Under the pieces are notes generated by a model that was given only the letters and a program-made list of their open reading frames with translations, did no database searches and was not told where the DNA came from. The position numbers and the translations under genes were made by a program. Shown in pieces: positions 15,967 to 21,525 of a DNA stretch of 57,320 bases; position 1 is the stretch's first letter; each line of letters begins with the position of its first letter. The stretch spans positions 1-57,320 of the IMG/VR virus record IMGVR_UViG_3300012165_000001; one strand, written 5' to 3'. The DNA is from a virus.

Positions 15967-16320
15967 ATGGATAGACTGACATGGAGAAATGAACGCGGGC
16001 AAGCATGTTTCCGCATGGGAGATACTGAATATGTCGGTGGGGAAATCGCGGAAAGGCTTGCCGAATTTGAAGAAGAGGAAGAAAGCGGATTGATTGCGCG
16101 GTTGCCTTGCGGTGTGGGAGAAAAATGCTAGTGTGCTTTTCAACAAGAACAACCGAATGGCAAATCTGCTGATGTGATATATCCGGTCATTCTTATGGGG
16201 TTATGGACTGATATTGATGGTAGCGGCATTTCATCTCGCCATTTTAAGATAGAGCAACTACACCCAACCCCCGAAGCCGCCGAATCAGCCCTCAAAACCA
16301 AATCCACGGGAGGGGATTGA
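15967..16320 (+). pseudogene. DRLT-family phage protein interrupted by one in-frame TAG (16129-16131): either a read-through gene or a nonsense pseudogene
   Basis: Codon-by-codon reading gives MDRLTWRNERG...LPCGVGEKC-TAG-CAFQQEQ...HPTPEAAESALKTKSTGGD-TGA. No RBS or start follows the TAG. Confidence 0.5.
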
Positions 16321-16321
16321 C

Positions 16322-16585
16322 ATGATGAAATCGATGAAGTCTAAAAATACCGATAACTACGGCAATCCAAGGCAGAACTATATTGATAAACTCGCCGCCA
16401 TGACGGATGCAGACCTACATACCGAAACGCGACAAAAGATTTGGCTATCAGCCTACGCCAACAACAATCCTCGCTCTGATTACCACTGGCAATGCGACGC
16501 TACATACGACGAATGGAAACGGCGCGGCAATCCTGACGGATATAAAAAGGCATATGATGAAGAATATGCCGCGAATTTTGGATGA
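16322..16585 (+). CDS. Hypothetical protein
   Basis: GGGAGGGG RBS; 87 aa. Confidence 0.5.
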   Translation: MMKSMKSKNTDNYGNPRQNYIDKLAAMTDADLHTETRQKIWLSAYANNNPRSDYHWQCDATYDEWKRRGNPDGYKKAYDEEYAANFG

Positions 16586-16610
16586 AACAAAATCCCTGGA
16601 ATGTGGATTA

Positions 16611-16639
16611 TTGACATTAGTGGGTAAATGGTGTATACT
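16611..16639 (+). promoter_or_regulatory. Promoter inside the element's left end
   Basis: TTGACA (16611-16616), 17 nt, TATACT (16634-16639). Confidence 0.55.
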
Positions 16640-16661
16640 ATATATTGAAAGGGTGGTTATT

Positions 16662-16790
16662 GTGAAATTCAATATAAGTATGCCGGACGAGTTTTATAAG
16701 AAACTCAAAGAAAAGGCCGCCGAAAAAAACATGAGCATAAGCGAATATATTAGATTTGCCTTGACGTTATTGTGGGAAAGGGGAATTTGA
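16662..16790 (+). CDS. 42-aa ribbon-helix-helix (CopG/Arc-like) protein translationally coupled to tnpB
   Basis: [42 protein letters not shown]. Its TGA shares one base with the tnpB ATG at 16790. Confidence 0.5.
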
Positions 16791-17908
16791 TGGAGAAATC
16801 GTACAAATTCCGCATATATCCAAATAAAGAACAAGAAATTCTTATTCAAAAAACATTTGGATGCTGTCGCTTTGTTTATAATTATTTTTTAGCGTTAAGG
16901 ATTGATATATATAAAAATCATGTCAGAGCAATTCGATTTTATGAAATGGATGCAATGCTTACTCAACTAAAAAATGAATTGCTATGGTTAAAAGAAGTTG
17001 ATTGTTTTCCATTAACGCAATCCTTAAAGATACTCGATCAATCATTTATAAATTTCTTCCGGAGGGTAAAAAGTGGAAACCCAAAGGTTGGATTCCCCAA
17101 ATTTAAGAGTAGGAAGCGTAGCAAAAAATCTTATAATACTAGGAACAAAAACAATAGTATTTCTCTTTTCGATTCAGGAATAAAGCTTCCAAAGATTGGA
17201 AAAATAAAGTGTGCAATTTCAAGACAAATTGAAGGCCGCATACTTTCCGCAACCATTTCTCAAAATCCAAGTGGCAAATACTTTGTGTCGATTTGTTGTA
17301 CTGATGTAGAAATTCAGCAGCACGAAAGCACCGGCACATCAATTGGTCTTGATATGGGTCTGAAATCGTTTTGCGTTTCCTCTGATGGGTTTTCTATTGA
17401 TAATCACAAATATCTCGCCAAGAGCCAAAAGAAGCTTGCCAAATTGCAGCGTCAGTTATCCCGAAAAACAAAGGGTAGCAGGAATAAAGATAAGGCAAGA
17501 ATCAAAATGGCGCGGTTGCATGAACATGTGGTTAACCAGCGAAATGATACACTACATAAACTATCAACCCAATTTGTCAAGGATTATGACATTATTTGCA
17601 TCGAAGATTTGCAAGTGAAAAATATGGTCAAGAATCATAAACTTGCAAGGTCTATCAGTGATGCATCATGGAGCGAATTTTCACGCCAACTTTCGTACAA
17701 ATGCGAATGGCAACATAAGGCACTTGTCAAGGTGGACAAATTCTTTCCATCAAGTCAGATTTGCTCATGTTGCGGCTATCAGAACAAAGGCACTAAAAAC
17801 TTGGCGGTACGGGAATGGCAATGTCCAGAATGCAATACCGTACATGACAGGGATGTCAATGCTGCACAAAATATATTGGCTGAGGGATTGCGTCTATTGA
17901 GCGCATAG
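16790..17908 (+). CDS. tnpB: RNA-guided endonuclease TnpB (OrfB_IS605 / OrfB_Zn_ribbon)
   Basis: [16 protein letters not shown]-terminus. RuvC residues in IGLDMGL, ICIEDL and [11 protein letters not shown]. Zinc finger CSCCG...CPECN. Confidence 0.9.
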
Positions 17909-18035
17909 CCATACAAAACTACCGTGGAACACATGGAAAGTAACGCCTGTGGAGATTATGTAAGACTGGATTCGCCAGCAACGATCATTGAAGCAGGAAT
18001 TTCCCGGCTTGTATAGGGAGAATTGTTAAGGAATG
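17780..18035 (+). ncRNA. Expected omega-RNA (reRNA) scaffold overlapping the tnpB 3' end and the downstream right end; extent not determined
   Basis: By analogy with characterised TnpB loci. The 125-nt non-coding tail ends in GGAATTTCCCGGCTTGTATAGGGAGAATTG. Confidence 0.35.
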
Positions 18036-18059
18036 AGGGGAGAAAGGAGTGAAAAACAC

Positions 18060-18287
18060 ATGACCGACCTACAAGCATTCCTCCAAGCCCAAACAACCAC
18101 CGGCCTCACCATCCGTGAGATATCGCGTCAGACAGGCGTGGCGGCCTCTACAATCAGCCGAATATGCAATGGTGGTATTTCACCAAATATGGAGACAGCG
18201 GGGCGTATACTGCGGCCATTTGGGTATAGGGTGGCGATTAATAAGATAGGGCGGGAGCCGACAGGAGAGGGAGGACATAATGAATAG
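18060..18287 (+). CDS. XRE-type HTH protein
   Basis: LTIREISRQTGVAASTISRICNG; GAAAGGAG RBS before the ATG at 18060. Confidence 0.6.
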   Translation: MTDLQAFLQAQTTTGLTIREISRQTGVAASTISRICNGGISPNMETAGRILRPFGYRVAINKIGREPTGEGGHNE

Positions 18288-18492
18288 AAATTTAGATGGC
18301 GTATATTTTCGAGTAGAAAGAAGTGGAGCGTGGGAAAATGTTTGCTTCTCTGACTTGAGCGAAAATGAAATGGATACCGTATTAGCTGGCAAAGATACGA
18401 AGTGGTTAATATCTCTGTGCAAAATTTTGGGAACCAAAATCAAGTATATTGGAAATCAATTCGATATTATGGCCGCAGATAATCCCGAATAA
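18280..18492 (+). CDS. Hypothetical protein
   Basis: GAGGGAGGA RBS. Confidence 0.5.
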   Translation: MNRNLDGVYFRVERSGAWENVCFSDLSENEMDTVLAGKDTKWLISLCKILGTKIKYIGNQFDIMAADNPE

Positions 18493-20661: not shown

Positions 20662-20734
20662 TAAGAAAAACTCCTTTACATTATATAATAGTTGTAGTAT
20701 AATAGTAGCATAACAATATAGGAGTGATACTACT

Positions 20735-20890
20735 ATGAACGAAAAAGTATTGAACATGAAATTGCCCAAAGATTTGTACGAGCAAATAAAGAAAATTTCC
20801 GAAAACAAAAACATATCAATGGCGTCCCTGGTTCGCATGGTTATGACTGAATACTGCAATAAGGAGGTTGCGGAATGCCAAAAAGATTAA
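20735..20890 (+). CDS. 51-aa ribbon-helix-helix protein, not in the ORF track
   Basis: MKLPKDLYEQIKKISENKNISMASLVRMVMTEY is CopG-like. Promoter TTTACA, 17 nt, TATAAT at 20675-20703. Confidence 0.5.
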   Translation: MNEKVLNMKLPKDLYEQIKKISENKNISMASLVRMVMTEYCNKEVAECQKD

Positions 20891-21525
20891 ATCCAGATGA
20901 TTATATCGGTAAGAGATATGGTAAAATGATTGTACTGAATATGCTTGACATTGAATATGGGAAAAAGAGAAAAGTTGTTTGTCAATGTGATTGCGGAACA
21001 GTAAAGTCGTGCGATATATCCGACCTAAGAAACGGAAAAATAATTAGCTGCGGTTGTGCCCATAATGGATGCTATTTCAAGCACAATAAAACAAATGCCA
21101 GGATATACTATACATGGTCAAGCATGATGCAGCGTTGCCACAACTCGAACGCTAGGGCTTATAAGAATTACGGTGGGCGCGGAATCCGAGTTTGCGAAGA
21201 ATGGCATGATGCAGAATCATTTATCAAGTGGGCCATGGCTAATGGATACTCTGACGATTTGACGATAGAGCGAAAGAACGTAAATGGAAATTATTGCCCA
21301 GAGAATTGTATCTTTGCCACAAGGATGCAACAAGCTCGGAATACACGCGTTCGTCACGATAATACATCTGGAACGCCGGGCGTATATTATCGAAAAGAAA
21401 ATGGGAAATGGCGTTCTGCAATAGGGGTTGACGGTAAATTCATTTGGCTTGGTTCGTTTGACACGGAAGAAGCTGCCGCCCTTGCCCGAAAAAAAGCTGA
21501 GTTGAAATATTGGGGCAAAGGTTAA
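20875..21525 (+). CDS. HNH_3/NUMOD4-type homing endonuclease with a C-terminal AP2 DNA-binding domain
   Basis: YKNYGGRGIRVCEEW, LTIERKNVNGNYCPENC and GVYYRKENGKWRSAIGVDGKFIWLGSFDTEEAAA (AP2 pattern). Confidence 0.7.
   Translation: MPKRLNPDDYIGKRYGKMIVLNMLDIEYGKKRKVVCQCDCGTVKSCDISDLRNGKIISCGCAHNGCYFKHNKTNARIYYTWSSMMQRCHNSNARAYKNYGGRGIRVCEEWHDAESFIKWAMANGYSDDLTIERKNVNGNYCPENCIFATRMQQARNTRVRHDNTSGTPGVYYRKENGKWRSAIGVDGKFIWLGSFDTEEAAALARKKAELKYWGKG

Follow-up and report, generated by a model that had tools for sequence, protein, structure and literature searches.

Insertion of IS605 elements produces no target duplication, and the right-end motif TCAA is a DNA motif used by the TnpA transposase, as in IS608 and ISDra2. 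TldR proteins are nuclease-dead, RNA-guided repressors derived from TnpB, and phage-borne examples are known. In ISDra2, the TAM sequence TTGAT is read by the TnpB residues Y52, S56, K76, F77, Q80, T123 and N124, and a pseudoknot arises in the omega-RNA through pairing of bases -5 to -3 with a segment further upstream (PMC10097598); an engineered ISDra2 variant, K76C, was relaxed at position -3 (PMC13639567). The first description of genes for Arc-like ribbon-helix-helix (RHH) proteins next to TnpB and homing endonucleases is that of 10.1101/2023.11.20.567912. In IS605 elements, including those that contain only arc and tnpB, such proteins bind and repress the tnpB promoter (10.64898/2026.09.24.754181). 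The RHH-tnpB operon analyzed here had originally been regarded as a configuration not yet described, which does not agree with the published Arc-IS605 elements, some of them carrying only arc and tnpB (10.64898/2026.09.24.754181; 10.1101/2023.11.20.567912), or with the archaeal RHH/MazE-TnpB loci (PMC10691335).

The studied element is located within a rightward series of small ORFs in a virus genome of 57,320 bp (hereafter the window). The record is complete, with direct terminal repeats, and a tyrosine integrase is encoded in it, so the window phage is temperate. The tnpB gene (16790..17908, + strand) encodes an ISDra2-like protein of 372 aa assigned to the IS200/IS605 family by the NCBIfam profile IS200_TnpB (NF038281; 516.6 bits versus a cut-off of 425); the score with the IS607 model was under its cut-off, and the HTH_OrfB, OrfB_IS605 and TNB domains were all above their family cut-offs. 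The original prediction of intact RuvC positions and a zinc finger agrees with an alignment of 30 TnpB homologues, in which D188, E272, D355 and the zinc cysteines C328, C345 and C348 are invariant and the zinc cysteine C325 is at least 90% conserved. The triad aligns with D191/E278/D361 of ISDra2 TnpB. Among natural proteins of solved structure, this one is the nearest both in sequence (E 1e-99) and in fold (TM of 0.84 and 42% identity for the predicted fold against 8H1J). Judging from these comparisons, the protein belongs to the IS200/IS605 TnpB family and has an intact RuvC triad and CCCC zinc finger, and it is predicted to be an RNA-guided nuclease. Identity with TldR or with a rearranged RHH-TnpB was ruled out, as all three catalytic residues are intact. 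Neither a Y1 TnpA nor a serine resolvase was found in the complete 57,320-bp record in searches that included positive controls, in line with the absence of TnpA noted earlier. TnpA could possibly be supplied in trans by the host.

Expression of tnpB may be coupled to that of a small upstream gene. A sigma-70/sigma-A type promoter (16611-16639, + strand), composed of TTGACA (16611-16616), a 17-nt spacer and TATACT (16634-16639), matches the consensus at 11 of 12 positions and is the top one of 4 sites found in 2.8 kb. It precedes an Arc-like RHH ORF of 42 aa (16662..16790, + strand; GTG 16662 to TGA 16790) that scores 25.7 bits with Pfam RHH_1 (cut-off 20.5) and has the PHROG annotation Arc-like repressor. 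A16790 is common to the TGA of this gene and the ATG of tnpB, and the last codons of the RHH gene form the purine-rich RBS of tnpB. The promoter, the CopG/Arc-like ORF and the shared base were thus correctly anticipated, and a small RHH gene adjoining tnpB and a promoter is what is found in Arc-containing IS605 elements.

The RHH protein had also been proposed to be a dedicated regulator. A dedicated, co-evolved RHH-TnpB pair, either the Arc of a canonical IS605 element or a toxin-antitoxin pair, with TnpB bound by the RHH protein, would be in keeping with the one-base stop/start overlap and with the presence of the pair in two phage backgrounds; precedents are the repression of tnpB promoters by Arc in other elements (10.64898/2026.09.24.754181) and the toxin-antitoxin model proposed for archaeal RHH-TnpB (PMC10691335). 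However, the archaeal catalytic site is rearranged, that of the window TnpB is not, and the genomic context of the homologues points elsewhere. The four nearest RHH homologues (76-86% identity) directly precede Phage_rep_O, helicase-like, DUF927 and HNH-AP2 genes, respectively, and a like promoter lies 5' of them, with both hexamers in three cases and the -10 hexamer in the fourth, where the contig is cut. No such RHH gene accompanies the nearest TnpBs (L031, 78%; L032, 69%; L001, 68%; L033, 67%; L002, 67%), and the window is the sole member of its four-member TnpB clade (see below) to have one. A co-directional recognisable RHH gene was found at 0 of 140 non-redundant tnpB loci and unrelated divergent RHH-like genes at six, two of them above Pfam cut-offs, in a survey by small profiles and reading by eye that may miss weak RHHs. 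A lineage of this RHH protein tied to tnpA or tnpB is therefore not borne out by its nearest homologues, conserved RHH-TnpB pairing appears largely refuted, and we consider a dedicated partnership very improbable. Instead, the promoter-RHH module is, by its gene neighbourhoods, probably borrowed from a phage family whose usual position is in front of replication or HNH genes. Because its nearest relatives head such genes, the RHH of the window looks independently recruited with respect to the described Arc-IS605 elements. The bases directly 5' of the tnpB start in L031 resemble the end of the RHH gene, and this microhomology may have served the RHH-tnpB join. By analogy with Arc proteins, the RHH protein may repress the window promoter; no operator was conserved among the five promoters compared. 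A perfect 9-bp inverted repeat (16641-16649/16668-16676) was rejected as an operator, as it is not conserved in homologous promoters; two inverted repeats of that kind were found, with about 1.5 expected by chance by our own estimate. The RHH module has no DNA match among GenBank phages.

Two further observations concern Arc-like genes. The window contains a second promoter-RHH-nuclease unit at 20675-21525 (+ strand), which consists of the promoter TTTACA-17-TATAAT (20675-20703), a gene for a 51-aa Arc-like protein (20735-20890) and an overlapping HNH-AP2 endonuclease gene (20875-21525); it is antisense amid minus-strand genes and is apparently missing in the sister phage L278. Divergent Arc-like genes lie 5' of more distant tnpB genes at L137, L072, L075, L085, L094 and L168, which is the layout described by Moon et al.

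The non-coding tail of the element had been suggested to represent an omega-RNA. A covariance model built from 24 relatives, with the window left out, matches positions 17917..18029 (+ strand) with 84 bits (E 1.9e-17) and predicts a scaffold of three stem-loop domains plus a pseudoknot. The tail therefore aligns and folds as an omega-RNA would; the scaffold ends at 18029, 121 nt past the tnpB stop, so that 18030-18035, which had been counted as tail, already belong to the guide. The 3' regions of related tnpB genes align as far as the TCAA end and then diverge. Two-sided changes occur in 20 of the 28 predicted scaffold pairs, a count that exceeds all 500 shuffles and all slid controls and that may be inflated by kinship among the sequences. 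Single-sequence folding of the tail was not significant (z = -0.91), and the Rfam collection has no model for this omega-RNA and gave two chance matches; the support for the predicted structure is thus comparative.

The 5' strand of the predicted pseudoknot (17928..17931, + strand) lies in the loop of the first stem and pairs with 18024-18027, that is, with scaffold positions -6 to -3; this pairing is found across the set and all four pairs covary. The window has A17928-U18027 where 22 of 24 others have G-C (right-justified count), and it is the only one of the 25 sequences with this two-sided change. Its right end reads TTAA, versus TCAA in relatives. Since the change from TCAA to TTAA is offset by A17928, the RNA still pairs, although the DNA motif that serves TnpA is altered. 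Pairing of the 3' end with TTGA near 17989 was considered and abandoned in favour of the first-loop pseudoknot. The usual right-end hairpin with its TCAA cleavage motif is not present, as the motif reads TTAA and the upper stem is unpaired.

The predicted 16-nt guide (18030..18045, + strand) corresponds to a conserved intergenic motif of the phage family that is uninterrupted in sister phages. It matches 16/16 in three sisters (L001/L279, L010 and L031/L278), where the exact empty sites are preceded by TCCCC or TCTCC; L008 has one seed mismatch, the diverged L007 has no match, and the one host genome scanned, an Oscillospiraceae MAG, gives 2-mismatch matches only. The proposal of a nuclease directed against the un-inserted allele is supported to the extent that the guide matches these empty alleles. 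The same flanking motifs without the cassette are found in L001/L009, L007, L008, L010 and L031, each with a different small gene after the site. More generally, short conserved gene-end/RBS motifs flank interchangeable small genes in the window (16282-16320 and 18030-18059) and in L001, L007, L008, L010 and L031, and the guides of both the window and L031 are such motifs.

At the left junction (16593..16606, + strand), the remnant of the empty site consists of TCCCT at the TAM position, where sisters have TCCCC or TCTCC, followed by a 9-nt partial target copy in which 8 of the first 9 guide bases match. The -35 box begins 4 nt after this copy. An element start at 16590 had been predicted; 16590-16606 is host-phage sequence rather than a transposon left end, no left end is visible abutting the TAM, and there is no hairpin between the junction and the promoter. 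In another clade member, L033, the first 11 guide bases are repeated at the left junction. As IS605 makes no target duplication, these two junctions suggest recombinational capture, possibly through repair of a TnpB break with one-sided homology. At L033:2916-2931, an intact GCTCC and the 11-nt perfect seed match lie just 5' of the tnpB promoter; speculatively, binding of the L033 TnpB at this place without cleavage might lead to autorepression. Taken as a mobile IS605/IS1341 transposon, the window cassette lacks a TnpA both in cis and elsewhere in the genome, it has no left end and an altered right end, and its RHH gene, judged by its four nearest homologues, is not a transposon-lineage Arc.

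A target for the guide of the sister TnpB (L031/L278) lies outside the element (16277..16297, + strand), with a 16/16 match at 16282-16297 behind CCGCC. The guide of each of the two phages, window and L031, thus finds a perfect target behind CNCC in the other. For the L031 guide, the window alone among the sisters offers such a target; mismatches in the TAM or the seed occur at these sites in other sisters. The reading frame 15967-16320 (+ strand), whose tail holds the L031-guide target, is split by an in-frame TAG (16129-16131). No empty allele turned up for either L032 or L033. Other RNA-guided nucleases were also observed nearby. In L001 (3001-4226; same phage as L279/L280), a non-clade tnpB (68%) lies in reverse orientation within the neighbouring HTH gene; its target has a perfect empty copy in L007 behind GTTAT, and the corresponding window allele (18077-18092) is mismatched in both the TAM and the seed. 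An IscB-like gene (RRXRR plus HNH) lies in the same early region of L281 (3838-5088; same phage as L007), so that, across the family, several kinds of RNA-guided nuclease are found in this small region.

In a quick tree, the window TnpB (P0001) forms a clade with P0002, P0003 and P0005 (SH-aLRT 99); the contigs of P0002 and P0005 are clearly those of phages, and that of P0003 is short and phage-like. The members are 67-78% identical to the window protein, occupy four different sites and all have full ORFs; a search for further members found none. Their right-end hairpin is shortened or rewritten, with the usual CTTTAG loop gone (L031:11131-11230, L032:4100-4200, L033:4131-4237), and the pseudoknot is whole in L031 and L033 and retains three of four pairs in L032. 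The TAM-pocket residues F50, D54, C72, T76, Q77 and R118 are unlike those of ISDra2 and unlike the usual residues of relatives: D54, T76, Q77 and R118 are common to all four members, whereas 0 of 396 other homologues have three of these, and F50, D54, C72 and T76 align with ISDra2 Y52, S56, K76 and Q80. The pentamers at clade targets are TCCCC/TCTCC (window guide), CCGCC (L031 guide, 16277-16281) and GCTCC (L033 junction), so that C at -4, -2 and -1 is common to three independent sites. Agreement of three random genome sites at three of five positions has p = 0.0025, in a post hoc comparison of three sites with GCTCC read from a junction rather than an empty allele. We infer from these sequences that the TAM of the clade may be 5'-CNCC. 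A cysteine at the K76 position, which relaxes position -3 in engineered ISDra2, fits the N in this motif, and on chemical grounds cytosine would be a suitable partner for an acidic residue contacting position -1. The non-clade L001 TnpB, with its GTTAT-flanked target, provides a contrast. A guide without a usable TAM, the empty sites lacking TTGAT/TTAT, was initially considered and was abandoned after the changes in the TAM pocket were seen. In a literature search, the phrase "C-rich TAM" turned up in no TnpB paper, which is weak evidence.

Could the cassette be an ordinary IS605 remnant (IS1341-like), non-autonomous and carried along by phage mosaicism, with a TnpB intact because it is recent and C-rich flanks that are coincidental? 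Most tnpB genes lack tnpA (10.1101/2023.03.14.532601), TnpB is common in phages (427 records), any insertion yields a guide that matches its own empty allele, and this family exchanges modules at conserved boundary motifs. Retention of full ORFs at four sites by proteins that differ this much argues against passive carriage, as does the compensated pseudoknot change, and the alteration of the right-end motif or hairpin in all clade members is in line with selection acting on the function of the RNA and not on transposition. We regard a passive remnant as unlikely, albeit deserving real weight.

We favour, with modest confidence, a domesticated, transposase-independent tnpB/omega-RNA cassette of IS605 type that is damped by the RHH protein and spreads by RNA-guided homing between sister temperate phages. 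The promoter would transcribe rhh, tnpB and the omega-RNA, and RHH dimers, as the Arc literature suggests, probably bind near the promoter and damp expression. TnpB would load the 3' omega-RNA, processed as established for this class, with the guide starting at 18030. When a sister phage or prophage with an empty site is present in the same cell, TnpB would cut behind the C-rich TAM, 5'-CNCC, and the break would be repaired from the filled genome with copying of the cassette, or the competitor would be lost. Cutting of the carrier would be avoided: TTAA precedes the copy on the downstream side, and the remnant on the upstream side, whose -1 base is changed, agrees with no more than 8 of the first 9 guide bases. 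Homing and gene drive by TnpB have been shown for chromosomes and plasmids (10.1101/2023.03.14.532601; PMC11870625).

A candidate case of spread is L284, which carries the cassette in a phage with different genes upstream of 16274. Over 16484-18359, where its contig ends, it has no mismatch to the window, and across 2,086 bp there are only seven; other shared patches are short and 91-98% identical. The near-identical tract begins 324 bp upstream of the junction. This shows a recent block exchange between the two phages, which fits homing with co-conversion and also ordinary mosaic recombination. Several points weigh on the homing reading: cleavage, expression and homing are deduced steps, the TAM comes from three sites picked after the fact, with none found for L032, sister alleles vary (L007 is diverged and L008 seed-mismatched at the site), ordinary module exchange between mosaic phages could account for L284, and four different sites are occupied although the cassette has no TnpA to carry it there. 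A related alternative is an active TnpB whose TAM is relaxed or different and whose main effect is to exclude sister phages, as superinfection defence or competition, rather than to copy itself. The guides of three TnpBs match conserved sister motifs, two phages target each other, several sister alleles have the seed or TAM mismatches that escape would give, and the cassette has its own near-consensus promoter. However, a guide equal to the insertion flank is simply what all IS605 elements have, the presence of an identical cassette in another background is in line with copying, and allele variation is high throughout these phages; exclusion as the main role seems highly unlikely. For the clade as a whole, we tentatively propose, at somewhat less than even chances, that IS605-type TnpBs on phage or phage-like contigs lost their transposon ends, remodelled the TAM pocket to C-rich 5'-CNCC and home under RNA guidance at the conserved module-boundary motifs of sisters, with two mutually targeting phages and one member recruiting a phage promoter-RHH module.

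The coupling of an RHH gene to tnpB adds little, as both the pairing and the repression mechanism have already been published. If the C-rich TAM holds, a 372-aa ISDra2-like nuclease would reach GC-rich targets missed by enzymes with AT-rich TAMs, and four natural sequences would indicate the specificity-switching residues. The filled, empty and mismatched alleles, together with the two mutually targeting phages, are a ready test of transposase-free TnpB homing between phages. The C-rich TAM clade is therefore a specific and cheaply testable lead, better than the RHH pairing.

Compared with the described systems, the window cassette shares parts of each. With ISDra2 TnpB-omega-RNA (PDB 8H1J, 8EXA, 8BF8; PMC10097598) it has in common the domains, the DED triad, the zinc finger and an omega-RNA pseudoknot at scaffold positions -6 to -3, whereas the ISDra2 TAM is TTGAT, that proposed for the window is CNCC, and the window has no TnpA. 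Like the Arc-IS605 elements (Moon et al.; Zedaveinyte et al.), it has a small RHH gene beside tnpB with a promoter; in many of those systems arc is divergent from tnpB, while in the window the genes are co-directional and overlapping, the transposon left end is absent and the right end is altered. Arc-like genes beside homing endonucleases (10.1101/2023.11.20.567912) have their counterpart at window 20735-21525. The archaeal RHH/MazE-TnpB loci (Altae-Tran et al., PMC10691335) likewise have a small RHH gene 5' of tnpB and a long 3' untranslated region, but with a rearranged catalytic site and a proposed toxin-antitoxin role, in contrast to the canonical DED triad of the window. As in TnpB-dependent retention and gene drive (Meers et al., 10.1101/2023.03.14.532601; Mears et al., PMC11870625), a guide from the insertion flank faces the element-free allele; those systems involve chromosomes and plasmids, with empty sites arising from TnpA excision or plasmid copies, whereas for the window the empty allele is found in sister phages.
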